From positions 120,937 to 184,936 of the forward strand of contig CAWCCK010000022.1 in the NCBI GenBank assembly GCA_963794025.1: a stretch of 64,000 bases of DNA, in the 5' to 3' direction. The translations under genes were made by a program, and so were the position numbers. The DNA is from Ignavibacteriota bacterium (GTDB lineage Bacteria; Bacteroidota; Ignavibacteria; Palsa-1295). A model generated the notes under the pieces. It was not told the origin of the DNA and searched no databases. It saw nothing but the letters and a program-made list of their open reading frames with translations. This document shows, one piece after another, positions 1 through 54,877 of the stretch. Numbering within the stretch: position 1 is the first letter of the stretch; each line of letters begins with the position of its first letter.

Positions 1-30
1 ATTTGCTCCGCTCGGAATGACATTTTAACT
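1..30 (-). repeat. Partial copy (cut by the window edge) of the GTCATyCyGAGCGGAGC hairpin-element family. Its reverse complement reads ttaaaatgtcattccgagcggagcaaat.
   Basis: Near-identical to the right arm at 29319-29345 (ctccgctcaggatgacatttta) and to the element at 31366-31385. Confidence 0.45.
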
Positions 31-880: not shown

Positions 881-3514
881 CTACAGTGCCGCCTTAATTT
901 TGTCGATTTTTGTTAGCAGGGTACCAATTTCGTTTTGCACCCTAATGTCTGGCAGATGAATCGATTGCATCTCGGCGTATTCTTTGTTGAATGTGGCATT
1001 GTCGCTTTTTGATGAGACAATGTTAAAAAAAAGTGGCTGTAGATGAAAAGCAACGAACCGCATGTTGATTTTACTTTTCCATTCGGGTTTGACCGTCATA
1101 ACATAAGCGTGGTCATTCGTTGCATACGTCTCATTTTTAAAATATTGCATTGACCCAGCATAGCCGTTTCGTGCAATCAATATCGTTTCCCCCGAAAATA
1201 TCTTTAATTTTCTCCCATCTTCGAATGTGGCATTCCTTGAAATGTATCCCATTTCAGTGTCTTCCATTGTAGAACTTGAAAGTATCTTTACTTCGTCATC
1301 TTTGTCAATCGGGCTATTGTGATAAATGAATTCCTCAGTTAAACCGCTATTCCCACCCGTGATCTCGAACATAGTTCCAATGTCTGCGGTTATAGTTGGT
1401 GTGACGGTCAAGGAATATTTATGTATCTCTTGAATGGAATCGGCAATTTTGTGAAAATTTACCGCACCAACCTGATCCAATATCTTTTGGATTTCACTTT
1501 CGAATTTTTGGGTAGTGATTGGTGTCGTTTCAAAGGGTCTCAGATGGAATTCTGATAAAAGATTGAAATAATTTTCCTCATTGATTTCCGATGCGTCCAC
1601 GTATTTGAACTTATAACCATTCAAACCCTCAGCAATCTCTCGCTGGTTCACTTTCCTTTCATATTGGTTCTTGTGGCTTTCATACTTTCGAGCGTCGGAG
1701 ATGAAATTTCGGATATTACTAACAGCGTTTGAAAAGATATTTTCCACCTCTACGATATCATCATGGTATTTAGTTCTGTAACGTTTGTCGCTATTAGCAA
1801 ATCCATCATAGTCTAGAATGTAATGCCATATTGGAAAAGTCTGCATAAAGCCGATTTCTCCTTCTTGCTTTCTTCTCATAAATAAGACGTAAGTTTTTTC
1901 CTTAGTATAAGGTGCAAAAGCAAACTTACTTAAAGAAATAATGGCGTACACATCACAATTGTCTAATAGCTTTTTTCTGAACTCTACGCGCGATGGAGTT
2001 TCAAGAGCGCCGTCATTCAATACAATCGCGATTTCGCCTCCATGTTTTACGGCATTGATAACCTTCTCGACAAACATTAATTCGTATCTTTTTTCGTTTG
2101 TGAAGCTAAAGCTGTCGATGTCAGCGTCGCCATCGTACTTACCCATCGGAGGATTTGTAAGTATATAGTCAAACACTCCCTCATCCCACCCTTGTTTAGC
2201 AACTTGTGTAAGGGAGTCATTCTTATAGATATGAACATGCCCGTCTCCAACTAAAAACATATTCAGCTTAGTTCTGGCGACAGACTCGAAATCGAAATCA
2301 AATCCCCAAAAGATTTCTTCTTTTAATTGTTTTTTTACTTTTTCGTTCAGTTGGGAATTTATAGAGTAGTTGCTTACTAGGGTCTTAAAAGCTTCTGTTA
2401 AAAAGCCACCAGTTCCGCAAGCGGGGTCACACACCCTTAGGTTGCGTACATTGACTTCGTTTCTCAACAAGAGCCGTGCAACTAAGCCCGTAATGTGTCG
2501 GCGCGTATAAAACTCGCCAAATTTCTTTTTCTTGCCCTGCGAAGCAAACTCTTCATAAATAGCACCGAATAGGTCAAAATTTGCTCCATGAAAATTATAT
2601 TGATCTAACTCATTATAGATTTTCACGAAGTGTTCGTGGCGAAGATTGCTTGAGAATTTAATTAGTTCTTTGAAATCTTTATAATTGTTGTTCTTGTAGG
2701 TGTCGTTATTCCAAATATAATTTACCATCGTTTCAAATTCCACCTTCAAGTCGCTGGCAACGGAACCTTTTGCGATATTTCTGAAGTCTCCCCATAATTT
2801 AATAACGGGATCTAATGTTCTCTTCTCTTTTTCATACTCATCAATATATTTAAGTACTACGAAGCTCACCGTAGGATCAATACGTGCATCTCCTTCTTTG
2901 ATGGCGGCCGATCGATAAATATCTGCAAGTGTTTTCAATGAATTCCGGAATTTACTTTCAGCAAAAGGCTGCGTAAGTGTTACCGACTTGTGTCTTACAT
3001 CCGAATTCTCGCTTGTTACCTGCGTCTGTATTTTTTTGAGGACTTCAATGGGAACAAGATGATTCAATAACCTACCATCAAGTGAAATCTCTTCATCATT
3101 ATTTACATTATAGAACCTCGTTTCTGAAACGCAGTTAGTAACGATATAGAAAGCAAGTTTCTGCCCTCTCGCTTTTTTTGCGCCGTGCTCCATTGCATTG
3201 CGCCAATCCATGTCCCCGACATTTGAATTGCGGTGTTTCGCTTCGATCAGGCTGGTGATATTTTTTTCGAAACTCGAATCTTTTTGTTTCGAGGTAGAGA
3301 TCCACACGTCTCCGCGTAAGCTACCCGATTTTTCGGTTGTAACATCCACCTTACAATAATCAACGGTTATACCCACCTCCGCTAATTGGGGCAGAAGGTA
3401 TTGGACTATGTCGTTTGCTTCCTGACGCTTCATGATGTGATTAATACGAACTGCTAAGTTTGGAGAATTTGTTTTTGTAACGGGAAAACGATTCAGGCAA
3501 GAAGAACGTCCCAC
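881..3514 (-). CDS. Type IIG (MmeI/Eco57I-like) restriction-modification enzyme. It fuses an N-terminal PD-(D/E)xK endonuclease, an N6-adenine DNA methyltransferase and a C-terminal target-recognition region. The true start is probably the internal Met near 3433.
   Basis: SAM motif I VCDPACGTGGFL and catalytic motif IV DYILTNPPMG are present. The N-terminus has a PD..ExK-like signature (RGDVWI ... IEAKHRN). The protein is about 850 aa in one polypeptide, and the segment is markedly AT-rich relative to its flanks. Confidence 0.75.
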   Translation of the reverse strand: MGRSSCLNRFPVTKTNSPNLAVRINHIMKRQEANDIVQYLLPQLAEVGITVDYCKVDVTTEKSGSLRGDVWISTSKQKDSSFEKNITSLIEAKHRNSNVGDMDWRNAMEHGAKKARGQKLAFYIVTNCVSETRFYNVNNDEEISLDGRLLNHLVPIEVLKKIQTQVTSENSDVRHKSVTLTQPFAESKFRNSLKTLADIYRSAAIKEGDARIDPTVSFVVLKYIDEYEKEKRTLDPVIKLWGDFRNIAKGSVASDLKVEFETMVNYIWNNDTYKNNNYKDFKELIKFSSNLRHEHFVKIYNELDQYNFHGANFDLFGAIYEEFASQGKKKKFGEFYTRRHITGLVARLLLRNEVNVRNLRVCDPACGTGGFLTEAFKTLVSNYSINSQLNEKVKKQLKEEIFWGFDFDFESVARTKLNMFLVGDGHVHIYKNDSLTQVAKQGWDEGVFDYILTNPPMGKYDGDADIDSFSFTNEKRYELMFVEKVINAVKHGGEIAIVLNDGALETPSRVEFRKKLLDNCDVYAIISLSKFAFAPYTKEKTYVLFMRRKQEGEIGFMQTFPIWHYILDYDGFANSDKRYRTKYHDDIVEVENIFSNAVSNIRNFISDARKYESHKNQYERKVNQREIAEGLNGYKFKYVDASEINEENYFNLLSEFHLRPFETTPITTQKFESEIQKILDQVGAVNFHKIADSIQEIHKYSLTVTPTITADIGTMFEITGGNSGLTEEFIYHNSPIDKDDEVKILSSSTMEDTEMGYISRNATFEDGRKLKIFSGETILIARNGYAGSMQYFKNETYATNDHAYVMTVKPEWKSKINMRFVAFHLQPLFFNIVSSKSDNATFNKEYAEMQSIHLPDIRVQNEIGTLLTKIDKIKAAL

Positions 3515-3675
3515 TCAAATTAGACCCCGAAGGGGAAAAAATAAAGCCAACCTGTTTGTCCGCAATGTGCTCGCGGGGAATATCAAGATTGTTGCGGAAA
3601 TAAAGTTTATTCAAGGGAATAGGTGCCTATCATCTAAACTACAATATACGAAGAAATTGCCGCTCGCCAGGGTGT

Positions 3676-3702
3676 GTCGGGCTGGAAGCGCCGACCTACG
3701 CG
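3676..3702 (+). repeat. Intergenic half-copy of the 27-bp palindromic element GTCGGGCTGGAAGCGCCGACCTACGCG.
   Basis: The same 27-mer occurs (with 1 mismatch) at 32705-32731 and as an inverted dimer at 26460-26510. It contains the internal hairpin GTCGG...CCGAC. Confidence 0.7.
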
Positions 3703-4060
3703 GCAAATTTCAATAAATCTTTCGGAATCACTTGACATTGCCACTTTAAGTTCGTATATTGGGAGTGCGGTGATGGGCACCTATCCGGGGAAATTATGAA
3801 AGATGAAATGGGGGAGGGTGCGAGTTCATTGAAAATTGCGTGGGGCTTGTGGAATGTGGATAAGCTATTAGGAAGTCTGTTGAAATCCACTGTATTGAGC
3901 GAGATTGACTCAAAAAAGCTACAGTTTATGAATTCCTAATGCAAAAAAAAATAATAAGCACCTATTTCAAGTAGCAAGCTATCCATTAATAACCCATCGG
4001 CAAGCTACGGAGCAGAACTCGGCAAAAGCGTGTTTTGTGGCACTCTAAATTTTTTATTAC

Positions 4061-14159: not shown

Positions 14160-15557
14160 ATGACTCATAAATGTTTTTGCTGGGCGTGCATACTCGGCGC
14201 GCTTCTCTTAATGGGAATGCTGGTTTCGAGTAATGCCAATGCGCAGACCGCTCCGTTCGTAGAAAAAACGCTGGCGAATGGTTTAGATGTGATCGTCGTC
14301 GAAAACCACATGGTTCCCCTTGTGACGATCGAGCTTGTCGCGAAGAACGGCAGCTTCACCGAGCCGCCGCAATACAACGGCCTCTCGCATTTGTACGAAC
14401 ACATGTTCTTCAAAGCGAATCAGAAATTGCCGTCGCAGGAGCAATTTATGAATGGCTTGGAAGACTTGGGCGGCTCGCTCGGCGTCAGCAACGCAACGAC
14501 GAATCAGGAGCATGTGAACTATTTCATTGTCATTCCGAGCCGGAATATGGATGGGGGAATGGATTTCATGTCCAACGCGATCCGCACGCCGCTCTTCGAT
14601 TCGAATGAATTGAGGAAAGAGACGCACGTCGTGCTCGGCGAGTTCGACCGTAATGAAGCACAGCCGGATTTCAAGCTGCGTTACGCGATGGATTCCGCCG
14701 TGTGGTCGCCGGAATTATTTAGCCGCAAGCAGCAGCTTGGCTTGCGTCCGGCCATTCTTGCCGCCACGCCGGAAATGATGCACACGATCGAGCATCGCTT
14801 TTATATTCCGAACAACATGGCGCTTGTCATTGCAGGCGATGTGAAGCCGGAAGAGGTCTACAAAGAAGCCGAAAAGTATTTCGGACAGGGAATGTGGCCG
14901 AAAGGTCCTGCGCCATTTCCGAAATACGATCCGCCGCCGTTCCCGCCGATCAAAAAGCAGCTGGTTGTCCGCGAAGGAGCGGAGATGCCCTATACGGAGG
15001 TTGACATGACCTGGCAAGGCCCAAGCCTTGGGAAGGATAATGCCGATAGCTATGCCGCAGATGTGTTCCATACTATCATCGGCGAGCGGAATAGTAAGTT
15101 CCAGAAAGACTTAGTCGATAAGCGGTTGGCCTATCAGATAAATTCGGGATGGTTCTCGGAAAAAAATGTCGGCCCGATCATGATTACTGGTTACGTTCCC
15201 ATCAACGCCACAAAGAAAGCGATCAAAGCCATTCAGGATGAGATCACACATTGGACGGATCCCGATTATTTCACCGACGAAGAGCTTGCAACCGCCAAGC
15301 GCATCATGGAAGGCGACCGGATTTACGAAACGGCTTCCGCTACGGAATTTGCAACGAACACGCTCCCATTATGGTGGGCCTCTGCCGGGCTTGATTACTA
15401 TATCCATTATATCGAGAACGCGAAAAAAGTTACCCGCGCCGATATTAATCGTTATCTCAATCGGTGGATCGAAGGAAAACCCTACGTGCTCGGCGTAACC
15501 ACCAACCAAGCTGCACTCGATAAACTTAATCTCAAGCCGGAGGATCTTTTACAATGA
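14160..15557 (+). CDS. M16-family (pitrilysin/insulinase-like) zinc peptidase, the active subunit. It has a signal peptide; the start is chosen at MTHKCF.
   Basis: Inverted zinc-binding motif HLYEHMFFKA (HxxEH) and signal peptide CILGALLLMGMLVSSNANAQ. Confidence 0.8.
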   Translation: MTHKCFCWACILGALLLMGMLVSSNANAQTAPFVEKTLANGLDVIVVENHMVPLVTIELVAKNGSFTEPPQYNGLSHLYEHMFFKANQKLPSQEQFMNGLEDLGGSLGVSNATTNQEHVNYFIVIPSRNMDGGMDFMSNAIRTPLFDSNELRKETHVVLGEFDRNEAQPDFKLRYAMDSAVWSPELFSRKQQLGLRPAILAATPEMMHTIEHRFYIPNNMALVIAGDVKPEEVYKEAEKYFGQGMWPKGPAPFPKYDPPPFPPIKKQLVVREGAEMPYTEVDMTWQGPSLGKDNADSYAADVFHTIIGERNSKFQKDLVDKRLAYQINSGWFSEKNVGPIMITGYVPINATKKAIKAIQDEITHWTDPDYFTDEELATAKRIMEGDRIYETASATEFATNTLPLWWASAGLDYYIHYIENAKKVTRADINRYLNRWIEGKPYVLGVTTNQAALDKLNLKPEDLLQ

Positions 15558-18581: not shown

Positions 18582-18588
18582 TAATTAA

Positions 18589-18614
18589 GAATTACGAATT
18601 TCAAATTACGAATT
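18589..18614. repeat. AATTACGAATT tandem motif (2 units).
   Basis: Member of the dispersed AATTCGTAATT family (19308-19340, 31316-31342, 31933-31995, 37633-37657, 51224-51234). Confidence 0.55.
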
Positions 18615-18621
18615 GTAAAAA

Positions 18622-19308
18622 CTAAACGCTGGAAGGCGCGATAAATTTCATTCCAGCTTCTGCGTGTCTCCGCAAAAGCGTAGCTACGCGGTAACGCTCG
18701 GAACCATATTCTCCGGCGAGTGCGTCAAGGATAGCGACGATCGCTTCTGCGCCGATCTCATCGCACCACGCAAGCGGCCCTTTCGGATAATTCGTTCCGA
18801 GCTTCATCGCGGTGTCGATGTCTGCGGCCGTCGCAACAGATTCTTGTACCGCGAAGGCTGCTTCGTTAATTATCATTGCAAGCGTTCGTGGGAACACGCC
18901 AGCGATGGCATCTTTTATCTCTTCACCCGTCTTACCAAGCAATGTGAGAAACTTCCCGACAGTTTCGTTGTAGTGGCTGGGTTCCCCAGCCCGCACTCCG
19001 AAGGGAAACGAATATTCCACGCTTTTCTGTCGAGCAAAATAATGCGGCAGGATGGGCATCCCAATTATGTGCACACCTTTTTTCACAGCATGTTGCGCGG
19101 TGGTGGCGCTCAAGGTTAGCGTATTGGAAATGATGGGAACGTTGGTCTCGAATTTCGAGAGATATTCCGCTTTTTTCACAGGATCGAGAAACGTGAGGCC
19201 GAGCACAAGGTCGGGTTCGCTTGTTACGAGTTTGACATTCTCCATCCCCGAAAAATAGGATGTGAATGACGGAAGATACAGTTCATCCGCGAACAGTTGG
19301 ATTTTCAA
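18622..19308 (-). CDS. 3-hydroxyacyl-CoA dehydrogenase family protein with a divergent N-terminus lacking an obvious GxGxxG motif.
   Basis: The C-terminal segment AMKLGTNYPKGPLAWCDEIG matches the 3HCDH C-terminal domain, and the gene is adjacent to a thiolase. Confidence 0.5.
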   Translation of the reverse strand: MKIQLFADELYLPSFTSYFSGMENVKLVTSEPDLVLGLTFLDPVKKAEYLSKFETNVPIISNTLTLSATTAQHAVKKGVHIIGMPILPHYFARQKSVEYSFPFGVRAGEPSHYNETVGKFLTLLGKTGEEIKDAIAGVFPRTLAMIINEAAFAVQESVATAADIDTAMKLGTNYPKGPLAWCDEIGAEAIVAILDALAGEYGSERYRVATLLRRHAEAGMKFIAPSSV

Positions 19309-19340
19309 AATTCGTAATTCGTAATTTGAAATTCGTAATT
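19308..19340. repeat. AATTCGTAATT tandem motif (3 units).
   Basis: aaattcgtaattcgtaatttgaaattcgtaatt, in the orientation opposite to the 18589 copy. Confidence 0.55.
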
Positions 19341-25439: not shown

Positions 25440-28400
25440 TTGAACCCCAAAACACATTCCAACGAACTCCGCCTGTTCGTCTCCTCGACGTTCCGCGACC
25501 TCATGCCCGAACGCGAGCAGTTGGTGAAAAAAATCTTCCCGCGTATCCGCAAAGAGTGCCGCGAACGTGGCATCGAATTCACCGAAATTGACCTGCGCTG
25601 GGGAATAACCGAGGAAGAATCGCGCACCGGCAAAACCATTCGTATCTGCCTGGAAGAGATCGACCGCTGCCGACCGTATTTCATCGGAATTATCGGCTCG
25701 CGCTACGGATGGGTTCCCGGCATCACCGAGATCGAAAAAGACGAAGAAATGCTGAAAGAATTCCCGTGGCTCCGCGACTATGCCGCCAGCGATAAAAGCA
25801 TTATCGAAATGGAATTCGCGCATGGCGCGATCCTACGGAAAAACGACAGCGCGTTCTTTTATGAACAGGGGAACAACGATTCACAGTACTCAAATGACAA
25901 AATGGACTCAAATGACAAGTCCTTTCAGTCCATTTCGTCCCTTGAGTCCCTTAAACATACCCTTCAATCCACCGGAGTTCCCTATCGCCGCTTCACCGAT
26001 CCCGAAGAATTAGGCGAGCAGGTATTTCAGGACATCCTCACCATTCTCGACCGCGATTTTCCGCAAAAGAAAGAGATGACGCCGCTCGATCACGAACGCG
26101 CCGAGCACGAAGCGTATTCGCGGAACCGGCGGCAATCGTATGTTGCAAATCCGGAGTATTACGAGGCATTTGCAAAATATGTGGAGTCCGATGGCCCGCC
26201 GCTTATTATTTGGGGAAGATCGGGTTTGGGCAAGAGCGCGCTCATGGCGTATCTGGCGCATGAATATCAAACGCGGAACCCGAATGCCTTCGTCGTCCAG
26301 CATTTTATCGGCGCAGCCGAAGGCAGCGATCCCGAAGACGTGATGCGTCAGGTGATGATGGAAATAAAAGAACGCTATCAGCTTGCGGACACGATCCCCA
26401 CCGACGAAAACGCGCTCCGGGAAGAATTCCCAGTCTGGCTGGCGAAAGTAGGAGGGGATGGTCAGGCTGAAAGCACTGACCTACGCGTAGGTCGGCGCTT
26501 CCAGCCCGACACCCTCATCCTTTTGATCGATGCGCTCAACCAGCTTACAGGCATTGCGCCGGAAATGCACTGGCTGCCGGATTTCATTCCCGCGAATGTG
26601 CGCCTCATCGTTTCAACAACAACCGAGAGCCTTCCCCTTGCACAATTACGCGAGCGGAAGTGGAATGAATTGGAACTTCAGCCGCTAACCGAACAGCAGC
26701 GCGAAGCTATCGCGCAGGGTTTCCTGAATCGCTTTCACAAATCGCTGCCGCTGAGCGATCTGCACACGCTTTCGGCAAATCCCAAATCGTCGAGTCCGCT
26801 GTTTTTGCGGACGGTGCTGGAAGAGCTTCGCATTTTCGGGCATCACACTACGCTGCACGAAGAGCTTGAGGATTATTTAGCGAGCGCGGATGAAAGAGAA
26901 CTATTCCAGAAAGTGCTCGCCCGCATGGAGCGCGATCATGGCGAAGACGCCGTTCGTAATGTCATGACCGCCATCTGGGCGTCGCGGCACGGGCTGTCGG
27001 AATCCGAACTGATGCAGATCACCGGCAAGCCGCGCATGGAACTATCGGAACTTATGATCGCGATGGAATACCACCTCATGACCCGCGAAGGGTTCCATAC
27101 CTTCTTCCATAATTATTTGCGCGAAGCGGTGGAGATGCGCTACATGCCGGATGAAGTAGCGCGTAAAGCTGCACACGCGAAAATCGGGGAATATTTCTCC
27201 ACAAGAGAATATGGCCATCGACGAAGAGACGAAGAACCCTGGCAATGGACCGAGGCGGGTGAAAAAGAGAGGCTGATCGGATCGCTTGCCGATCTCGCTA
27301 TGCTAAATCTCTTCATACAAAGTCAGAGGACGCACGAGTTAGTTACCCATTGGGTGCATGCCGATATGGATCGTGTTGCAGGGAGTTATGCCGATTCTTA
27401 TGGCAAGTTACCGGATAATGTTGGCAATGCGGAGCGTCAAGAGCAACTGCGGAACATCGGCAAGATATTGCTGGCCGCTTCAAGGCCAATGGACGCGCAG
27501 GGGTACTTAGAGCGATCGCTTGAATTTACGCGAAAGATTCATGGAATTAAAAGCTTTCAAGCAGCGGAGGCGTTAGAAGATCTGGCTGAATTGCAATACG
27601 AACTTGCCGATTTCAATGGCGCAAAAAACTCACTGCAAGAAGCTGTTTCCATTCACGAAGAAGCGAATAGTTCACCGCTGAAAGTAGCGGCGCGCTATAG
27701 TTCCCTCGCTTCCGTTGCGTACCAGCAGCAACAGTATGAAGAGGGATTGATGTTTTGTAATAGTGCGCTTGCGGTTTTGCCCGAAGGCGGATGGGATGAA
27801 GACACATTGCGCGCTGATATTTTCACCAATATGAGCGGTTTGTATTACAGGCAAAAGAAATTGAATGAGGCAATTTCTGCTGCGGAACAGGCTGTTGAAG
27901 CTCAAAGAAATTTGCATGGCGATTCCGACAATCATACGCTGATCGCCATGAACAATCTCGCATCCATTCTCTCAGCAGCCGGTAGATATGTGGAATCGGA
28001 ACAATTGTTTCTATCCCTCATAGTAACCTTGAAAATGAATTTGGGGAAAACCCACCTTAATGTTGCTAGTGCGCTGAAAGGATTTGCTCTTGCTTTAGAA
28101 CGTGCCAATCAAATACCAAGAGCGAAGGCAGCAATTAAAGAAGCGTTAGCAATATTTCTCAAACATCTTCCATCCGATCATCCAGAACTGCTTTCTGGAC
28201 AATTGGCTGTAGGTGCCTATGAATTTCTGGAAGGCAATTTCAGTGAAGCGGAGAAAATATATCGACAATATGAACCACTTCGCGCCACCATTCTCGGCTT
28301 CACTCATCCCACTGTGCTGCGCGGCCGTGAGCGTTATATTGAAATACTTCTCGCTCTCGGCAAAAATAGAAGAAGCCTCCATGCTCAAATTGGAACTGGA

Positions 28401-28535
28401 GGCTGCTTTATAAAGACGATCAGAATTCAGAATAGAATCAAAACTACAAAAATGCTATCATCTTGTACTGCTGTCCGAAATCATTATAACAATCGAGACC
28501 GAAGCCCCGCCATTGGCAGCGTTCATGCTGGCTGA
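25440..28535 (+). CDS. TIR-like (DUF4062/STIR-type) - STAND P-loop NTPase (NACHT/NB-ARC-like) - TPR-repeat protein. This is a bacterial NLR-like candidate antiphage defence protein.
   Basis: The N-terminus RLFVSSTFRDL...ICLEEIDRC matches the TIR beta-strand and the S.WC..E catalytic-Glu motif. Walker A is GRSGLGKSALMAY and Walker B is TLILLIDALNQ. The C-terminal ~400 aa carry TPR_10/12-like repeats. An in-frame insertion of a palindromic repeat lies at 26460-26510. Confidence 0.7.
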   Translation: MNPKTHSNELRLFVSSTFRDLMPEREQLVKKIFPRIRKECRERGIEFTEIDLRWGITEEESRTGKTIRICLEEIDRCRPYFIGIIGSRYGWVPGITEIEKDEEMLKEFPWLRDYAASDKSIIEMEFAHGAILRKNDSAFFYEQGNNDSQYSNDKMDSNDKSFQSISSLESLKHTLQSTGVPYRRFTDPEELGEQVFQDILTILDRDFPQKKEMTPLDHERAEHEAYSRNRRQSYVANPEYYEAFAKYVESDGPPLIIWGRSGLGKSALMAYLAHEYQTRNPNAFVVQHFIGAAEGSDPEDVMRQVMMEIKERYQLADTIPTDENALREEFPVWLAKVGGDGQAESTDLRVGRRFQPDTLILLIDALNQLTGIAPEMHWLPDFIPANVRLIVSTTTESLPLAQLRERKWNELELQPLTEQQREAIAQGFLNRFHKSLPLSDLHTLSANPKSSSPLFLRTVLEELRIFGHHTTLHEELEDYLASADERELFQKVLARMERDHGEDAVRNVMTAIWASRHGLSESELMQITGKPRMELSELMIAMEYHLMTREGFHTFFHNYLREAVEMRYMPDEVARKAAHAKIGEYFSTREYGHRRRDEEPWQWTEAGEKERLIGSLADLAMLNLFIQSQRTHELVTHWVHADMDRVAGSYADSYGKLPDNVGNAERQEQLRNIGKILLAASRPMDAQGYLERSLEFTRKIHGIKSFQAAEALEDLAELQYELADFNGAKNSLQEAVSIHEEANSSPLKVAARYSSLASVAYQQQQYEEGLMFCNSALAVLPEGGWDEDTLRADIFTNMSGLYYRQKKLNEAISAAEQAVEAQRNLHGDSDNHTLIAMNNLASILSAAGRYVESEQLFLSLIVTLKMNLGKTHLNVASALKGFALALERANQIPRAKAAIKEALAIFLKHLPSDHPELLSGQLAVGAYEFLEGNFSEAEKIYRQYEPLRATILGFTHPTVLRGRERYIEILLALGKNRRSLHAQIGTGGCFIKTIRIQNRIKTTKMLSSCTAVRNHYNNRDRSPAIGSVHAG
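26460..26510. repeat. Inverted dimer of the 27-bp element (GGTCAGGCTGAAAGCACTGACCTACGCG / TAGGTCGGCGCTTCCAGCCCGAC), inserted in-frame inside the NLR-like gene.
   Basis: The right arm is the exact reverse complement of 3676-3702. It encodes GQAESTDLRVGRRFQPD, the same frame as the STDLR peptide from copy 32705-32731. Confidence 0.7.
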
Positions 28536-28964: not shown

Positions 28965-29185
28965 GATAATAAATAAAGTTGATTGAAAAAGCCTTCCGGC
29001 GGATGGTTGAGAAAAACAACACGGTCCGCATCATCCGTCGTCGGGCTAAAAAAACACATTTTTCGCGAATCGCAGTACAAACATACGACATTTTTTCCCA
29101 TTCTGCAAGAAATCGGTTAATGACAATAATTCGGTAATTCATAAATGGCATAGTGGGGCTGAAAAGGGGCAGTCGATGAAATACC

Positions 29186-29343
29186 TGTCATCCTGAGCGG
29201 AGCAAAAGTTAGTCCGCCTCAGCGGACTAACTTTTTGCGGAGTCGAAGGATCTCCGGACATTCACCGCACAGTGCAACTCCATGAGATCCTTCGACTCCG
29301 TTTTTCTCTCCTTGCGTCAAGAAAAACTCCGCTCAGGATGACA
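29186..29343. repeat. Structured palindromic element with 17-bp perfect terminal inverted repeats (TGTCATCCTGAGCGGAG ... CTCCGCTCAGGATGACA) and nested internal hairpins.
   Basis: Internal hairpins are GTTAGTCCGCctcaGCGGACTAAC and GGAGTCGAAGGATCTC...GAGATCCTTCGACTCC. It lies 43 nt upstream of the SLOG gene start. Related copies are at 1-30 and 31366-31420. Confidence 0.65.
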
Positions 29344-29385
29344 TTTTAAATATATTCCGCTCCAATTCTTCGTAACTTCGTAGGA

Positions 29386-30399
29386 ATGGAAACCACCACA
29401 ACATCGCTCGAACAGATTCCCGTACACGCTGACGCCTCTATCGAATCGCCGGTGGAGCAGTTCATCGACGAGGAGCTGATCCACGCGCACCATCATAGCC
29501 ACCACGCGCTTCCGTGGACGGCGCGTCCTGCGAAGGAATCCGGCCCGCTGCCGCTTGTTATCGGCGTTTCCGGCCACCGCGATCTGCGAGATGAGGACAT
29601 CCCCAAGCTAACGGAAGTGGTGCTTGCCGAGTATGCAACGCTCCGAAAAAATTATCCTTCCACGCCGATCACGCTGCTTTCTGCGCTTGCCAATGGCGCG
29701 GATCGTCTGCTTGCGCATCTGGCGCTTAGTTCTGGAATGCGGCTTGCCGTTGTGCTTCCGATGCCCATCGATCTGTATGAAACGGATTTCGATGCGGCGT
29801 CTCTGATAGAATTTCACGAGTTGATTTCAAAGGCAGAATATTTTTCCGATCTGCCGATCATGCCGGGTCTTACGCGGGAGTTAATTAGCGTGCATGGCAT
29901 CGGCCGCGAGATGCAATACGCGCAAGTGGGCGCGTATATCGCGGCGCACAGCGCCATTCTTATCGCGCTGTGGGATGGAGTGGAACTTAATCTGGTCGGC
30001 GGCACGTCGCAGGTGGTGCGGTTCAAGCTCGATGGTATTCCGGAACCGTACGCGCCGCCGCACAGCGAACTCGACGCGCCGGATAGCGGCCCCGTCTATC
30101 ATATTGTGACGCCGCGTGCTATCAATCCCCATCCGGCACATGCGTTCACGGTGCATCGGTTGTATCCCGCCGGGTTCCGTTCCCATGTCGAAGCCGATAA
30201 AGCGTATGACGACGTGTATTCCCGCATGGAAACGTTTAACGAGGATTCTATCAAGTATTCCGAAGATCTGAAAGAACATTTCCGCGCCAGCAAGGAATAT
30301 ATGTTCCCAGCGCACGCGCATCAGTTGGTGGAGCATCATATCATATCATCGCCGGAAAAAGGAGCATGGTGCAAAAGGGAACCATCATCCGGCCAATAA
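29386..30399 (+). CDS. SLOG-superfamily (DprA/LOG-like Rossmannoid) protein, a putative nucleotide-binding sensor.
   Basis: The core LVIGVSGHRDL...LSALANGADRLLAHLALSSGMRLAVVLPMPIDLYETDF...ILIALWDGVELNLVGGTS follows the DprA/LOG pattern (Gly-rich loop after strand 1, the G..G.D..AH motif, then VVLP...YP-like). Gap to the membrane-protein gene is 13 nt. Confidence 0.55.
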   Translation: METTTTSLEQIPVHADASIESPVEQFIDEELIHAHHHSHHALPWTARPAKESGPLPLVIGVSGHRDLRDEDIPKLTEVVLAEYATLRKNYPSTPITLLSALANGADRLLAHLALSSGMRLAVVLPMPIDLYETDFDAASLIEFHELISKAEYFSDLPIMPGLTRELISVHGIGREMQYAQVGAYIAAHSAILIALWDGVELNLVGGTSQVVRFKLDGIPEPYAPPHSELDAPDSGPVYHIVTPRAINPHPAHAFTVHRLYPAGFRSHVEADKAYDDVYSRMETFNEDSIKYSEDLKEHFRASKEYMFPAHAHQLVEHHIISSPEKGAWCKREPSSGQ

Positions 30400-30412
30400 T
30401 GACCCCAATGAA

Positions 30413-31228
30413 TTGCCGCCATTATTAAAAGAAGATCTCGATTTTTACGCCATCGCCGATGTGCTTTCGCAGCGATTTCAAAAGCGCACCAAAACGACGA
30501 TCCAGTTACTGCTGACCTTCGTATTTTTCGCTGCGCTATTCTTCGAACTCTATTCCGGATTGTTCGAAGAGCCGGCGATGCTCGGGCTGTATCTGGGAAT
30601 GTTTCTTTGTTCGTTCCTCGTCTATTATTGGGCCGAGCGGCATGGTTACCAAACCCGGTACTTGGATTACCGCGCCTTAGCCGAAGGACTTCGTGTGCAA
30701 TTTTTCTGGAAATTAGCCGGAGTCGAAGATTCCGTTGCCGATTTTTACATGCGAAAACAGCGCAGCGAACTCGACTGGATCCGCAACGCCATCCGCGCCT
30801 GCATGATCGGGAACTCACAGCACAGCACCAATAAATTGCTCGATGAAGAAGCCCAGCGCGACCGCCTGAACCTTGTGCTTAAACATTGGGTGGAAGACCA
30901 GGCGAAATACTTTGCGAAAGCTGCCCACCGCGAGCACGAGGAGCTGCATGGCCGCGAGCGGATGATCTCACTGCTTTTTGGCGTCACGCTCGCGCTCGCT
31001 GCGGCGCATGTGATTTTGTTCGGTCATAAAAATGAATTTTTGTTGCTTTTAATTGGCGTGCTTCCCGTTGTTGCCGCGCTCTTGCATAGCTATCTGCAAA
31101 AAAATGCCTTTGCCGAACACAAGCGCCAGTACGACCGCATGAGCGTGTTCTATCATCGCGCAACCGTGCATTTGACTAAACTTATCGGTGAAGATCGCCT
31201 TGTGGATGCTCAGAAAATTCGTTGCTGA
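30413..31228 (+). CDS. Four-TM (2TM - helical linker - 2TM) SLATT-like membrane protein, a predicted effector partner of the SLOG protein.
   Basis: Hydrophobic helices at about residues 30-50, 55-75, 175-195 and 200-220, with a charged helical segment between them. It is co-directional with and 13 nt downstream of the SLOG gene. Confidence 0.5.
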   Translation: MPPLLKEDLDFYAIADVLSQRFQKRTKTTIQLLLTFVFFAALFFELYSGLFEEPAMLGLYLGMFLCSFLVYYWAERHGYQTRYLDYRALAEGLRVQFFWKLAGVEDSVADFYMRKQRSELDWIRNAIRACMIGNSQHSTNKLLDEEAQRDRLNLVLKHWVEDQAKYFAKAAHREHEELHGRERMISLLFGVTLALAAAHVILFGHKNEFLLLLIGVLPVVAALLHSYLQKNAFAEHKRQYDRMSVFYHRATVHLTKLIGEDRLVDAQKIRC

Positions 31229-31315
31229 ATTTGGCCGCGAAGCCCTCGTCGAAAACGGCGATTGGATTCTTTTACACCGCGATAGGCCGCTTGAAGTTCC
31301 CAAAGGAGCGTGAAT

Positions 31316-31342
31316 CAATTACGAATTACGAATTACGAATGG
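31316..31342. repeat. AATTACGAATT tandem motif (3 units).
   Basis: caattacgaattacgaattacgaatg, immediately followed by a hairpin element at 31366. Confidence 0.55.
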
Positions 31343-31365
31343 GGAATTCCGATGCAAGTACAAGT

Positions 31366-31420
31366 GTCATTCTGAACGGAGCACTTCTTCGCGGAGCGAA
31401 GAGGTGCGAAGTGAAGAATC
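31366..31420 (+). repeat. Member of the GTCATyCTGAACGGAGC hairpin-element family (tgtcattctgaacggagcacttcttcgcggagcgaagaggtgcgaagtgaagaatc).
   Basis: It shares the GTCATyCyGArCGGAGC terminus with 29186 and 1-30, and has an internal inverted repeat gcacttcttcgc/gcgaagaggtgc. Confidence 0.6.
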
Positions 31421-31932: not shown

Positions 31933-31995
31933 AATTACGAATAAGGGAACACTCAGTCCCTATAATTCGTAATTCGTAACTCGTAATTCGTAATT
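31933..31995. repeat. Inverted arrangement of AATTACGAAT / AATTCGTAATT units (1 + 4 units) around a short hairpin.
   Basis: aaattacgaataagggaacactcagtccctataattcgtaattcgtaactcgtaattcgtaatt. Together with 31316-31342 it brackets the DUF4236 gene. Confidence 0.55.
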
Positions 31996-32001
31996 GCCGT
32001 C

Positions 32002-34833
32002 ATGTTTCCAAAGTTCGCTTTTGGTTTCGGATATCTGATCGTGCTGCTCGCAGCAGGGTTGCTCGCGCTTGGGATTTATTTCAAGTCGGGGACCGTGCCG
32101 GAGTATTCCGGCTCGGCCAGCGTTGCTGGTATTTCGGGAACGATCGATATTGACCGCGATGGATTTGCCATCCCGCATATTCACGCTGCCACGGAGCGCG
32201 ATGCGTATTTCGGCTTGGGTTACGCGGAAGCGCAGGATCGGCTCTTCCAAATGGAATTTGCACGACGTGCGGGTGAGGGAAGGTTATCGGAAGTATTTGG
32301 GAACCGGACGCTGCAAATCGATAGATGGTCGCGCACGATAGGGTTTGCGCGTATCGCCGACCAGATGTGGCTGAAGGCCGGTACGCATACGCGCGAAGTG
32401 CTCACGGCTTTTTCCGGCGGAATCAATGCGTATCTTAAAGATCACCGTAAGCATTTAGGATTTGAATTCGATGCGGTTCAACTTGTTCCGGAAAATTGGC
32501 GTCCGCAGGATTGCCTGATGATCGGGCGGCTGATGTCGTGGGAACTGAACTTCTCTGCGTTGACGGATGCCGCCTTCACCGATTTTTCTCAAGTGCTGGA
32601 TTCAGCGCATTTGCATTCGATCTATCCCGTCTATCCCGACGATGGCGCGACGGTGCTCGGTGGCGCAAATCCGAGCACGTTCGTTTCGAATTATCTGGCG
32701 GGGAGTCGGGCTGGAAGCACCGACCTACGCGAAACAGGCGCACGACCAAAGCCACTTGATACTACGAAGAAGCTACAGGTCATTCCCAAAACTTCGCAGC
32801 GAATGGAAGACCCCGATTCTTCGCGGAACGATTTTGCGTCGCTGTTCCAGCAAGCCAGCGATTTCGATAGCGCGGTTGGCGCGTGTATCGGAGTTGGCTC
32901 CAATGCGTTCGCCATTTCGGGTTCCCACACAGCGGATGGCGCGCCCATTCTCGAAAACGACGCACACTTGCAGCTTCAATCGCCTTCGCGGTGGTATCTT
33001 GCGCATCTTGTAAGCGACGATGGATTCGATGTTGCGGGTTTTCTTATTCCTGGTTTGCCCGTCATTATTTCGGGACGTTCGCACGATCTTTCGTGGGGCA
33101 TCACCAACGGCATGACGGACGAGTGCGATTATTTTATCGAACATCTCGATTCGACTGGAACGAAATATATGCTTCCGAATGGAGCGTCGCAAGCGTTTAC
33201 CGTTATTCACGATACGATTCGCGTGCGTGATTCCGCGAGCAAAGATCAATCGCATGCAGTTCCCATCACGGTACGCATGACGATCCACGGGCCTATTGTG
33301 ACAGGAATGCATCCGCAAGCGATCGAAAGTAAATTTTATAATGATGCTCGCGCAGGCGGCATCCCAAATAATTCCATCTTTTTCCGCGATGGAAAACCCG
33401 TTGCGATGATGTGGAACGGAACCTACGCGCTGACGGACGAGCTATCCGGGTTCCTGGAACTTCCGCGCGCGAAGACCGTCACAGAAGCCAAACGCGGTAT
33501 GTCGGGATTTGCTACGCCGTGCCTGAATCTCTGCTTTGCCGATACGCATGGGAACATTGCATATCAATTTATTGGAAGGATACCGCGCCGGAATGGAACG
33601 GAAGCCCGGCAAACGCTTCCGCGCGATGGAACTAATCCTTCCGACGCATGGATGGGATTTGTGAATATGTCCGAGCTTCCAACGGTAACGAATCCTGCGC
33701 GAGGATATATCGTATCTGCCAATAATCCGCCGTTAAAAGACCGTCCGGTTCCCTACGGAATAAATTGGGAACCCTCATCGCGCGCTGACCGCATTGGGGA
33801 ACTGCTTGCCGAGCGCCCGCACCCAGATGCGGGATATGCGCAGAGCATTCAAACGGATATTATCAGTCCCTACGATCTTCAGCGCGTGCTGCCGTATCTG
33901 CTTGCGCTGTATCCCGATCCCAATCCGCCACGACTCACTGCGGATAGTTCTTCCACGTTTAGGATTGACTCTATGCGGCTCGCATGGAAAGAAGATTCCC
34001 TTTATCGTCATACCTCGATTGGCGATAGCGCGATGAAATATGTCCGGAGGAATGATTCCATTTGGATCGCGGAGCACAAGCTGGCGGACGACCGCTTGCG
34101 AATTAAAACCGAGAACGTCGATCCGTTCACTGCGCAAGTTCTCAATTATCTTCGCAACTGGGATGGCGGAATGCGCGCGGAGGAGATCGCTCCCGCGATC
34201 TATTCCGTGTTTCTAAATCGACTGATCTATAATACTTTTTATGAAGGACTGAGCGGGAACGAAACATCTTCTCAACGGTACGACGAATTTATTTTGCTGC
34301 AGAACATTCCGCTCCAAACGCTGGCGCATTTGTTGCCGGATAGTGGGAATGTATGGTGGCATACCAGCTTCGGCAACAATTATGGGCGCGATTCCATCAT
34401 TCAGCTTTCATTCCATCAATCGCTTCGCATCTTAGCGCAAATTTTTGGTTCCGATATGCGCCAGTGGCAATGGGGGAAATTACACTCGCTCACGATTCGT
34501 CATGCGTTCGATAAAGAAAGCCCGCTCCTTGCCAAATTGGTCGATGTCGAAGGCGGGCCAATGCCCGGCGGGCCGACAACGGTGCTACAAGGTTCCTATT
34601 ATATGTGGAACCCGTATCAAATGCAGGTTGGCCCTTCGATGCGTATGGTCGCGGATATGAAGACCGATGAGCTGCTCGCCGTGCTCCCGACTGGGAACTC
34701 CGAAGCGATCTTCGGCGATCATTACCGCGACATGCTGCCTCTGTATCGAGATGGAACCTTAATTAGAGTTCCGTTAAATGAGCCGACAGAACGTGGCTCC
34801 AATTGGAAACGATTTGAACTGAGACCGGAATAA
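32002..34833 (+). CDS. Penicillin/cephalosporin/AHL acylase family Ntn-hydrolase (943 aa) carrying an in-frame palindromic-repeat insertion.
   Basis: Motifs AYFGLGYAEAQDRLFQMEFARR, the GSNAFAISGSHTADGAPILENDAHL Ser-nucleophile region, and an N-terminal TM/signal. A low-complexity insert lies around 32690-32830. Confidence 0.75.
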   Translation: MFPKFAFGFGYLIVLLAAGLLALGIYFKSGTVPEYSGSASVAGISGTIDIDRDGFAIPHIHAATERDAYFGLGYAEAQDRLFQMEFARRAGEGRLSEVFGNRTLQIDRWSRTIGFARIADQMWLKAGTHTREVLTAFSGGINAYLKDHRKHLGFEFDAVQLVPENWRPQDCLMIGRLMSWELNFSALTDAAFTDFSQVLDSAHLHSIYPVYPDDGATVLGGANPSTFVSNYLAGSRAGSTDLRETGARPKPLDTTKKLQVIPKTSQRMEDPDSSRNDFASLFQQASDFDSAVGACIGVGSNAFAISGSHTADGAPILENDAHLQLQSPSRWYLAHLVSDDGFDVAGFLIPGLPVIISGRSHDLSWGITNGMTDECDYFIEHLDSTGTKYMLPNGASQAFTVIHDTIRVRDSASKDQSHAVPITVRMTIHGPIVTGMHPQAIESKFYNDARAGGIPNNSIFFRDGKPVAMMWNGTYALTDELSGFLELPRAKTVTEAKRGMSGFATPCLNLCFADTHGNIAYQFIGRIPRRNGTEARQTLPRDGTNPSDAWMGFVNMSELPTVTNPARGYIVSANNPPLKDRPVPYGINWEPSSRADRIGELLAERPHPDAGYAQSIQTDIISPYDLQRVLPYLLALYPDPNPPRLTADSSSTFRIDSMRLAWKEDSLYRHTSIGDSAMKYVRRNDSIWIAEHKLADDRLRIKTENVDPFTAQVLNYLRNWDGGMRAEEIAPAIYSVFLNRLIYNTFYEGLSGNETSSQRYDEFILLQNIPLQTLAHLLPDSGNVWWHTSFGNNYGRDSIIQLSFHQSLRILAQIFGSDMRQWQWGKLHSLTIRHAFDKESPLLAKLVDVEGGPMPGGPTTVLQGSYYMWNPYQMQVGPSMRMVADMKTDELLAVLPTGNSEAIFGDHYRDMLPLYRDGTLIRVPLNEPTERGSNWKRFELRPE
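32705..32731 (+). repeat. Copy of the 27-bp element (GTCGGGCTGGAAGCACCGACCTACGCG) inside the acylase CDS, in-frame.
   Basis: Differs from 3676-3702 by one base and encodes SRAGSTDLRE. Confidence 0.7.
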
Positions 34834-36760: not shown

Positions 36761-37647
36761 AGCGCGAATCCAATTCCAAAGCTGACGGACGTGCCGAGAT
36801 CGGGATGACGAACTGCCGCGAAGTCGGCAGTGAAGTTCCCAGTAGCGACACCAATGCCTCCGGAAATTTCTCCGGTTCCCGTATCCCCGCCCGCGCGAAC
36901 GAAGAGGTGGGAATCAATATCATATTCCGCGCCGACGTGAAAAGCAGCGTTATATTCCGCGCTCGATTCGAACGCGGCGTCCAGCGTAAGATCGTTTGTC
37001 GCACGATATGAAAGTCCAAACCATCCCACGCGATCTTCGACGGAGTCGCCATAATTATTATAGAGGCTGACGAGGTGCGTAACGGCGGCGGCAAGTGTAA
37101 GATTTGGGAACAGATCGAAACTTACGCCCAGATCCACGCCGATGTCATCAAGCGGAAGGTACTCGGAACCAAAAGTTTCCTGCGAATAGCGAATACGGAT
37201 GCCGGCCACGGCATGGCGCCTGGTAGAACTATCGCCGTCGTTAACATTCGTTCCGCCAACGGCAAATGTTCTCGATGCCTGGATGCCAAATGTTTGCCAG
37301 GAATAGGCGTCGGTCCATTGATACCGGCTGAGCGACACACCGGCAAGCCAAAGCGGATCGAGCGGAATATCCCCGGCAAATCCGGCGCTCCAGCTTTCGG
37401 GAAGTCCCAACGGCAGTGGCGAAAGCGTTGCGTGCAGATGAGATGACGTATCGACTGGGAGTGCGGGACTCGGAACCCATTCATCGCGCGCATCGGCTAG
37501 ATCGCTGCCACCGATCGCGAGTGAGCGTGGGGAATCGCTCGTAGCGCCGAAAATCTGCGCGTGCGCGATGGGAACTTCGGTCAGCGCAATAAAAAGAAAA
37601 ACGCAGAACAGGACGCGCATGGGACAAGTACAAATTACGAATGACAA
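36757..37647 (-). CDS. Outer-membrane beta-barrel protein (PorP/SprF-like or OMP_b-brl-like).
   Basis: Signal peptide MRVLFCVFLFIALTEVPIAHAQ, alternating hydrophobic beta-strand pattern, about 296 aa, ending GIGFAL. Confidence 0.45.
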   Translation of the reverse strand: MSFVICTCPMRVLFCVFLFIALTEVPIAHAQIFGATSDSPRSLAIGGSDLADARDEWVPSPALPVDTSSHLHATLSPLPLGLPESWSAGFAGDIPLDPLWLAGVSLSRYQWTDAYSWQTFGIQASRTFAVGGTNVNDGDSSTRRHAVAGIRIRYSQETFGSEYLPLDDIGVDLGVSFDLFPNLTLAAAVTHLVSLYNNYGDSVEDRVGWFGLSYRATNDLTLDAAFESSAEYNAAFHVGAEYDIDSHLFVRAGGDTGTGEISGGIGVATGNFTADFAAVRHPDLGTSVSFGIGFAL

Positions 37648-37657
37648 ATTACGAATG
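37633..37657. repeat. AAATTACGAATGA tandem motif (2 units).
   Basis: aaattacgaatgacaaattacgaatga. Confidence 0.5.
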
Positions 37658-37743
37658 ATATTCGCAATTCAAAGTTCTCAAAACTTTTCGGGGACGAAAA
37701 TACGAAGAAAATCATGATGAGATGCAAGAAGCACTATTTTAAC

Positions 37744-38559: not shown

Positions 38560-38583
38560 TTTTAGCTAAGAATGAAGAAGTAA
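38560..38583. repeat. Reverse-complement copy of the TTCTTAATTCTTACTTCTT motif.
   Basis: gaatgaagaagtaagaattaagag. Confidence 0.5.
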
Positions 38584-38609
38584 GAATTAAGAGTAGGGAA
38601 GGTTAATTT

Positions 38610-46206: not shown

Positions 46207-46774
46207 TCCGAACCGGGATTACGCGGATTGGATGGATTACTCGGATTAGAATGTAGGGGCTAATGGCATTAGACCATTCGTCTCCTGCAAAACGGGTCAA
46301 TGCCATTGACCCCTACAAAAAAATAATATATTTTCGGATTTCCCTTGCTTTTGCTCTCAGAATGTTGTAAGTTCGGTAGTACATTAATGGGCACCAATTT
46401 CTATAAGAATAATATAATTATTAGCTTTCTTTATGAACGAGTTCTCTATGAAAAGTAAACTGCGGATACTTGTTGCAACAAATGGCGAAATTAGTTTGGA
46501 AACGAAGGTGCATCGGGAACTCACAAGAAAGAAAAACGGCACCTATTTCTGGGGGAACATGGATTTGGAATGAAGGAGGTTAAAAGAACTATCTTCAGCT
46601 TCAGCGGGTTTACGGCGCGCTATTTGGCATAGGGCGGATGAAGCAGGGGGTCTGTTTATTCGTCCTGCGGGGAGCAAACATTCGGTTGTTACGGGCCAGA
46701 ATTTCCTCGCAACAATGGTTTGGCAGGAGAGCTTCTAACTACTGCAGAACAACAATATTGTCAAAGGCGCAAAA

Positions 46775-54600: not shown

Positions 54601-54793
54601 GCTGTCACCTTTATTGTTCTATAAGAAATAGGTGCTTTTTTTCTTTCTTGTGAGTTCCCGATTTCCAATCGTAACCCTTCGATTCCGAACCAATTTCCAC
54701 ATTCGTTGCAACAAGTATTCATAATTTCCTTTCATAAAGAACTCGTTCCTAAAGAAACCTAATGCCGAATTGTCAATAGATTCATAAAATCCC

Positions 54794-54824
54794 ATTCTTA
54801 ATTCTTACTTTTTAATTCTTAATT
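54794..54824. repeat. TTCTTAATTCTTA tandem array.
   Basis: attcttaattcttactttttaattcttaatt, similar to 47-80. Confidence 0.5.
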
Positions 54825-54877
54825 GATATAGGTGCCCATCATTGCACTACTAATATAATACATTCCAAACCCGAATG

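Follow-up and report, generated by a model that had tools for sequence, protein, structure and literature searches.

The 158-bp element at positions 29186-29343 of the window (the whole 64,000-nt stretch of DNA analyzed here) belongs to a family of small palindromic bacterial repeats that is very widespread, and is intergenic repeat DNA of an ordinary kind. Taken as a whole, it is very probably a tags-outside REP dimer of the CGTC/TGTC-tagged superfamily, the basic module of which is one unit. This unit has a well-supported structure, and a lineage-specific, REPIN-like dimer is built from it. The palindrome says nothing specific on how the defense-like SLOG-SLATT gene was acquired or is regulated, which removes a false lead.

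Anatomy of the dimer and of its repeat unit

Perfect 17-bp terminal inverted repeats delimit the element, as the sequence-only reading had reported, with TGTCATCCTGAGCGGAG at 29186-29202 being the exact reverse complement of 29327-29343. The two inner hairpins that it had described are also there, i.e., GTTAGTCCGC/GCGGACTAAC as a portion of a 15-bp stem (29202-29238) and GGAGTCGAAGGATCTC/GAGATCCTTCGACTCC with arms at 29240-29255 and 29284-29299, and a third one (TTTTTCTC...GAAAAA) occupies 29300-29327. What had been called a nested palindrome consists instead of two inverted copies of a 56-67-nt unit, placed tail to tail with a 33-nt spacer between them. Full-length alignment with 21 metagenome dimers supports this order of left unit, spacer, and inverted right unit (arms of 67 and 58 nt), which is the complete dimer with tags outside, or "HH," of Di Nocera et al. 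2013.

The left unit (29186-29252, + strand) begins with a TGTC tag (29186-29189) and the 5' strand of stem P1, ATCCTGAGC (29190-29198), the 3' strand of which lies at 29242-29251 (G-T bulge-CGAAGGAT); the assignment draws on the architecture of about 500 copies and on P1 covariation. Its loop holds a variable hairpin, P2a (29202-29238, + strand), which folds as GC-AAAAGTTAGTCCGC-CTCA-GCGGACTAACTTTTT-GC. The exact P2a sequence of the window has no other occurrence in the metagenome collection, and its relatives in the sampled loci L309, L220, and L292 share the core GTCCGC-CYCA-GCGGAC with flanking bases that are different and mostly complementary. The spacer (29253-29285, + strand) runs from TCCGGACATTCACC to AACTCCATGA; the lineage-specific dimer family keeps both of these ends (consensus TCCGGNNATTCACC...AACTACAYGA), and the first 14 nt of the spacer are identical in L263. 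The right unit (29286-29343, - strand) reads TGTCATCCTGAGCGGAG-P2b-CGGAGTCGAAGGATC on the - strand, with a P2b hairpin (29300-29327) of the GTTYGTYC...GRACRAAC subfamily. The terminal repeat is a perfect 17 bp because both window units are of the CCT/AGG variant.

As a whole, the element folds far more stably than shuffled sequence (z of about -15). Folding energies are -95.3 kcal/mol for the + strand and -106 for the - strand, against -39 and -48 for the respective shuffles (z scores of -14.6 and -15.7), and none of 200 shuffles is as stable. Folded singly, the two arms of the window dimer do not choose P1, which is thermodynamically weak, and RNAalifold run on dimers favors pairing between the arms over P1.

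The contexts of the collected copies define the repeated entity as a unit of 26-70 nt, TGTCAT-YCY-GAGCGGAGC-(optional hairpin)-(GGAGTC)GA-RGR-ATC, composed of an unpaired TGTC tag, stem P1, a GGA loop, and a short tail. P1 pairs ATYCYGARC with G-Y-(T)-GARGRAT over nine positions, in the order A-T, T-A, three covarying pairs, tandem G.A/A.G, and two G-C pairs. In the short form the loop is the 3-nt GGA, and in long forms, as in this lineage, it has an additional hairpin and reads GGA-GC-(P2)-GC-GGA. The YCY of the head and the RGR of the tail are complementary in 394 of 409 copies across four variants (CCT/AGG, TCT/AGA, CCC/GGG, and TCC/GGA), and another P1 pair covaries as GAGC...GCGA, GAAC...GTGA, and GACC...GGGA. 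When covariation was checked with 54 distinct haplotypes, each of the three variable P1 pairs proved to have compensatory changes (CG/UA/GC, UA/CG, and GC/AU/CG). A composite alignment of only the two P1 strands, extracted by invariant anchors, scores 0.417 for covariation, against 0.163 for shuffles (0/500 attain 0.417) and no more than 0.145 for slid controls. Because A5, T6, and the base opposite T6 are set by the anchors with which copies were collected, the T6 pair cannot vary in this set; A5 has T as its partner in 37 of the 54 haplotypes and faces C in the GGACC variants.

Among 101 copies that do not match the search pattern (the core pattern ignores the tag), the tag is TGTC in 78 and CGTC in 10, and all copies in the window carry TGTC. 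The tail of the unit reads CTC, CTT, CTG, or CCC, with CCA being rare (e.g., in TGTCATGCTGAGCGAAGCGAAGCATCCA). At the two Y-R pairs of P1, C.A mismatches (14 cases) exceed T.G mismatches (2 cases), and the common GGACC tail adds A.C. This excess of C.A would correspond to wobble pairs on the opposite strand, a hint that the strand ending in ...ATGACA-3' is the functional single strand. The hammerhead and other small ribozyme cores were rejected by eye, as the element does not fit CUGANGA and GAAA.

The related copies that had been proposed at 31366-31420 and at the window start were borne out. The window contains four instances of the head motif GTCATYCYGARCGGAGC, at 5-21 (-), 29187 (+), 29326 (-), and 31366 (+), against 0.12 expected, and none of 100 shuffles reaches four; therefore, the copies at 31365-31420 and 1-22 are real. 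The former (+ strand) is a single unit of the TCT/AGA variant and the GAAC...GTGA form, with a P2 of its own (CACTTCTTCGC-GGA-GCGAAGAGGTG), and is flanked by the 3' ends of the SLOG-SLATT gene and of a convergent DUF4236 gene. Folded singly, it forms exactly P1 plus P2, and it is absent from the relatives L198, L200, and L199. The window start truncates a further unit, of which the copy at 1-22 (- strand) is the outer end (TGTCATTCCGAGCGGAGCAAAT...). Two other candidates, TGTCATTCCGAGCCGGAAT at 14528 and CGTCATCCCGATC at 36810, fall within conserved coding sequence and were discarded as chance matches.

Each copy had also been said to adjoin a tandem heptamer array. The arrays of the window are of the (AATTCGT)n and (ATTCTTA)n types. 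Clear ones do lie 25-26 nt from the 1-22 copy (48-78) and from the 31365 copy (31317-31340), but only degenerate heptamer-like stretches accompany 29186-29343, and six further arrays have no adjacent unit (18583-18614, 19309-19340, 31963-31995, 37630-37658, 38567-38592, and 54794-54824). The arrays are kept at orthologous positions in L198, a relative that lacks these units; thus, arrays and units are independent. Most arrays stand directly 5' of start codons in sense orientation (amidase, thiolase, and others), and the DUF4236 gene (arrays at 31316-31348 and 31964-31996) and the gene at 18622-19308 each lie between two arrays in inverted orientation.

Other repeats share the window. A second family with a GTAG tag, CGCGTAGGTCGGYGCTTCCAGCCCGAC, occurs at 3671-3702, 26450-26521, and 32700-32731, as well as at 14293 in L198, 16667 in L200, and 2159 in L199. 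Its copy at 32700 lies in frame in the penicillin amidase gene, where it specifies GSRAGSTDLR within a linker that varies, and is missing from the orthologues in L199 and L201, and the palindromic dimer at 26450-26521 lies in frame in the NACHT-TPR gene (...AESTDLRVGRRFQPD...). The window also has two mutually inverted copies of a segment of about 150 nt, at 46420-46560 and 54615-54763, which are about 83% identical and 8 kb apart. One is located about 245 nt 5' of rplJ (ribosomal protein L10) and the other 15 nt 5' of an ABC-transporter ATPase gene encoded on the other strand. Short motifs related to this segment (...GGGCACCTAT) appear at 3619-3652, 3751-3784, 37456, 46374, and 54828-54857.

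Distribution across bacteria and the lineage-specific dimer

At least 15 bacterial phyla, as well as phage-like contigs, contain the exact 18-nt head of the unit. Acidobacteriota, Chloroflexota, Bacteroidota, Ignavibacteriota, Kapaibacterium, Verrucomicrobiota, Planctomycetota, Gemmatimonadota, Firmicutes, Actinobacteria, Proteobacteria, and CPR are represented, among others, and the unit is present in cultured isolates of Hymenobacter, Mucilaginibacter, and Edaphobacter. A scan of one genome per species gave at least 120 stretches, and an IMG/VR scan for TGTCATYCYGARCGGAGC gave 77. We presume that the core of the alpha-proteobacterial repeat CGTCATTGCGAGCGAAGCGAAGCAATCC equals that of this unit. 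A blastn search of the element against plasmids gave no match, a literature search by its sequence strings returned unrelated primers or nothing, and the supplementary files of two REP papers held no matching sequences. In the viral collection, contig IMGVR_UViG_3300031555_011079 (L042 and L061) carries at least five TGTC units, and there are two in each of the related contigs from which L004 and L014 come; the units are found within a longer conserved repeat, aaaacgcaTGTCATTCTGAGCGGAGCTGCACAAAGTGCAGCGGAGTCGAAGAATCTACGCATGATCGTGGTGCTTAGCAGT, as if they belonged to an intergenic regulatory region that is repeated.

Dimers in the sampled loci have their tags outside in 105 cases and inside in 16. 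Tandem pairs number 73, many of them being shortened head duplications 17-50 nt apart, and single units are also common. The two arms are of equal variant in 47 of 99 tags-outside dimers, where 32 would be expected if arms were independent, and are not identical in the other 52 of the 99. Of 44 dimers with unlike arms, 40 have arms that are each self-complementary. Therefore, the structural constraint acts on the unit.

The window dimer belongs to a composite that recurs as a whole. A metagenome scan for units with a P2 starting in GCAAAA gave 110 stretches; of 28 loci examined, 26 contain the dimer in full, as an asymmetric dimer of 130-166 bp in Kapabacteria/Ignavibacteria-like metagenome contigs. 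Its left arm carries a P2a of the form GCAAAAC...GTTTTGC or AAAA-NNNN-GTCCGC-CTCA-GCGGAC-NNNN-TTTT. Its right arm is nearly always CCT/AGG, with a P2b of the type GTTCGTCC-TCCCTTCGGTC-GGACGAAC. The 22 full-length dimers (that of the window plus 21) have the left-arm type, the spacer ends, and the right-arm type in common, and every copy sits in different flanks. P2b shows compensatory changes at seven of its eight predicted pairs, in up to 6 of the 22 sequences, and identical units stand in different contexts in the locus pairs L265/L277, L217/L287, and L218/L280. Given these different flanks and the identical units elsewhere, the 158-bp entity represents a genuine family of dispersed elements in this lineage, comparable to REPINs. 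An inverted doublet as the replicated entity was found for this Kapabacteria/Ignavibacteria-like subfamily only.

Possible roles, mode of spread, and the SLOG-SLATT gene

A co-opted role is possible, and we put it forward tentatively: the REP could serve as a two-way transcription barrier or mRNA-end stabilizer, which is compatible with its identity as a REP. Single units are rare between divergent genes (7/70; 20 lie between convergent genes) and are close to gene ends, in line with what PMC3733652 reports on REPs; CTGCTTTT follows many of the acidobacterial copies, TTTT follows the window dimer, and the 31365 copy lies between convergent genes. Against this role, a terminator scan calls nothing at the 29186 dimer or the 31365 unit, and the 29186 dimer is 5' of a gene start, not at a 3' end. 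The copy 5' of the SLOG-SLATT gene would have no function specific to that gene and, if transcribed, its very stable hairpin would act at most as a barrier or stabilizer between neighboring transcription units.

In Kapabacteria/Ignavibacteria-like bacteria, two unlike units and a conserved spacer very probably make up a composite that is copied whole into intergenic DNA in a REPIN-like manner. By analogy with GTAG REPs and RAYT transposases, spread might proceed via a single-stranded DNA hairpin intermediate, with the enzyme supplied in trans. To our knowledge, no mobilizing enzyme has been described for the TGTC/CGTC-tagged REP class. We consider it unlikely, if worth stating, that the exactly conserved 18-nt head in at least 15 phyla, the presence in phage-like contigs, the covarying structure, and the lack of a linked transposase mean that the TGTC/CGTC unit is a single cross-phylum family propagated or kept by an undiscovered machinery, be it a host enzyme that is itself conserved or a small, mobile nuclease that acts in trans; were this true, the window dimer would be the substrate of an undiscovered mobilization system. 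The C.A excess at the Y-R pairs of P1 and a Hymenobacter locus are two hints in this direction. The mode of spread of the repeat class is the sole part of this analysis with real discovery potential. In Hymenobacter glaciei (L113, 4082-4534), a 93-aa ORF that looks GIY-YIG-like by eye is placed between a single TGTC unit and a TGTC dimer; this ORF is a possible, but unsupported, candidate partner for the TGTC repeat class. Genes flanked by inverted units at 350-2600 bp belong to no consistent family in about 200 loci, where one other weak GIY-YIG-like match (L148) was found.

The sequence-only reading had proposed that a MITE-like mobile element delivered, or bounds, a two-gene SLOG-SLATT module. 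This module is one fused gene with two frameshifts (29386-31313): three homologues (576-578 aa) match 29521-30321, 30350-31174, and 31218-31310 in collinear order and in three successive frames, and therefore the window holds a single SLOG-SLATT fusion gene interrupted near 30320-30350 and 31175-31218. Most homologues of the SLOG protein are single proteins, 560-590 aa in length. The window frameshifts are likely long-read assembly errors or the mark of a pseudogene. The window ProRS assigns the organism to Candidatus Kapabacteria, as its closest named homologue is from a Kapabacteria MAG (83% identity). The relatives L198 and L200, which appear to be the same species, carry SLOG-SLATT genes 75-83% identical to that of the window; the gene is intact in L200 (643 aa) and still more fragmented in L198.

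Conservation at these orthologous loci bears directly on the history of the repeats. The leader of the gene is 152 bp long in L198 and L200 versus 421 bp in the window; it contains no unit, only the 20 nt directly before the ATG (AATTCTTCGTAACTTCGTAG) are conserved in it, and no unit follows the gene. Since both relatives have the gene without flanking units, the gene is older than the repeats that flank it in the window. Conversely, L198 and L200 have a 147-bp dimer in the interval that separates the amidase gene from the convergent gene next to it; the corresponding site of the window is a 10-bp gap. No unit is found in the 21 kb of L199 (ProRS 95% identical) or in L201, both loci ending inside the SLOG-SLATT gene. 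Repeats thus seem to come and go at different intergenic sites, insertion not being separable from deletion at about 76-83% protein identity. Synteny with the relatives breaks immediately left of the SLOG-SLATT gene, so that the exact empty site was not recovered. The homologue of the NACHT-TPR protein (P0249) is not syntenic, and no close relative with a matching left flank was thus found that would define the exact insertion junction. None of the relatives examined has a syntenic equivalent of the NACHT region, which gives the left flank of the SLOG-SLATT gene the look of a variable island. Around the locus lie defense-type genes, namely those for an 877-aa N6 DNA methylase fused to a type I specificity domain (881-3514) and for the DUF4062-NACHT-TPR protein (25440-28535). 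The gene between the SLATT end and the amidase also varies, being DUF4236 in the window, BNR/Por_Secre_tail in L198 and L200, and both in L199.

These data make it very improbable that the element is a MITE derived from a DDE-transposase IS, with copies that delivered or delimit a SLOG-SLATT cassette, and this reading is already largely refuted. What stands is a dispersed family that varies in presence among related genomes and, in this lineage, recurs as a complete dimer in many different flanks; it therefore behaves like nonautonomous mobile DNA. The perfect 17-bp terminal inverted repeats starting TG...CA, the related units on either side of the gene, and the synteny breakpoint on its left would also suit a MITE. 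However, a check for target-site duplications in 98 dimers gave none of 4 nt or more beyond chance (flank matches of 4, 5, and 6 nt in 0, 0, and 1 cases versus 0.5, 0.1, and 0.05 in controls). Half-elements, i.e., single units, are common, and many dimers have unlike arms that each keep their own complementarity. No transposase recurs near the repeats: clustering of ORFs from 197 loci plus the window, and then from 236 loci, revealed no recurrent mobile-element gene, the only recurrent neighbors being phage structural genes within IMG/VR contigs and common housekeeping families, and no related autonomous IS with equal ends was found in about 1.7 Mb of sampled loci. The role in cassette delivery fares no better. 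Family copies do bracket the gene, but the tags of the flanking units face it, and the gene is therefore between elements rather than inside one; moreover, L198 and L200 carry it without either unit, and L199 and L201 carry it with no unit after it.

A dedicated cis-regulatory leader RNA for the SLOG-SLATT gene, whether riboswitch-like or attenuator-like, is the other reading that had been offered, and we regard it as extremely unlikely. The element is located 42 nt 5' of the annotated start codon, is extremely structured, and belongs to a family in which P1 and P2 covary. This covariation, however, is common to copies from many phyla that stand beside unrelated genes. Strand bias is absent from single units (25 with the upstream gene versus 18 against it), asymmetric dimers have no significant orientation bias (11 versus 5), and the element is missing from the orthologous leader in L198 and L200. 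Rfam offers no match either, a search with the whole window at the gathering score giving nothing and one with 29100-29420 at an E value of up to 10 giving two matches at noise level. Finally, a chance palindrome or assembly artifact, which the apparent origin of the DNA from a metagenome-assembled genome with frameshifted genes might bring to mind, is already refuted, its likelihood being negligible given the stability relative to shuffles, the hundreds of homologous copies, some of them in cultured isolates, and the systematic compensatory changes. Repeats of this kind create spurious ORFs and can confuse the annotation of MAGs.

Comparison with known repeat systems

Bacterial MITEs such as Correia/NEMIS and Nezha resemble the dimer in their length of about 150 bp, their terminal inverted repeats, and their noncoding, intergenic, multicopy character. 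They differ from it in that the dimer has neither target-site duplication nor parent IS, and in that half-elements stand alone and arms are independent structural modules in this family.

REPIN/RAYT systems and BIMEs, the GTAG-tagged REP doublets of Pseudomonas and E. coli, come closer. There, as here, an inverted doublet plus its spacer is the replicating entity, forms a long hairpin, makes no target-site duplication, and varies in presence between relatives. The tag of our dimer is TGTC, in contrast, not GTAG/GTGG, and its unit sequence is common to many phyla, whereas REPINs are species specific. No RAYT gene stands beside any copy, the single RAYT-like ORF in the sampled loci (L250) being not flanked by units, and no Y1 transposase domain was detected among the 26 window proteins scanned.

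The CGTC-tagged REP superfamily, in which Neisseria dRS3 and Rickettsia RPE-4/RPE-6 are included (Di Nocera, De Gregorio, Rocco 2013, BMC Genomics 14:522; PMC3733652), is the class the text description of which the unit fits, either as one of CGTC-1 to CGTC-4 or as a further family. As described there, the tag is often TGTC (variants TGTC/CCTC), the stem nearly always starts with AT and has 8-9 bp, the loop has 4-5 nt, and an unpaired 3-nt tail is mostly CCA. Tags-outside dimers, often of unlike units, predominate, tags-inside dimers are rare, and tandem ones are negligible. These repeats are intergenic, mostly 3' of genes, without a dedicated transposase, and they were reported from five phyla, Chlorobi and Bacteroidetes among them (PMC3733652). 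Our family shares the unpaired 4-nt CGTC/TGTC tag at one end, the A-T and T-A pairs that open the stem, and the definition of subfamilies by complementary stem changes. Its dimers are likewise mostly tags-outside, often made of unlike units and 20-100 bp apart, and its copies are intergenic, mostly 3' of genes, spread over several phyla, and free of an associated transposase. In contrast, the stem described here contains a tandem G.A/A.G and the core GAGCGGAGCGA is conserved. Its loop has 3 nt or is expanded by a hairpin of 10 to about 60 nt, its tail is only rarely CCA, and tandem head duplications are frequent. The Kapabacteria-like lineage, moreover, repeats a fixed asymmetric dimer with a conserved spacer. 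With at least 15 phyla and phage-like contigs against the five phyla reported, the REP class described in 2013 extends to Kapabacteria, Acidobacteriota, Chloroflexota, CPR, and phage-like contigs.
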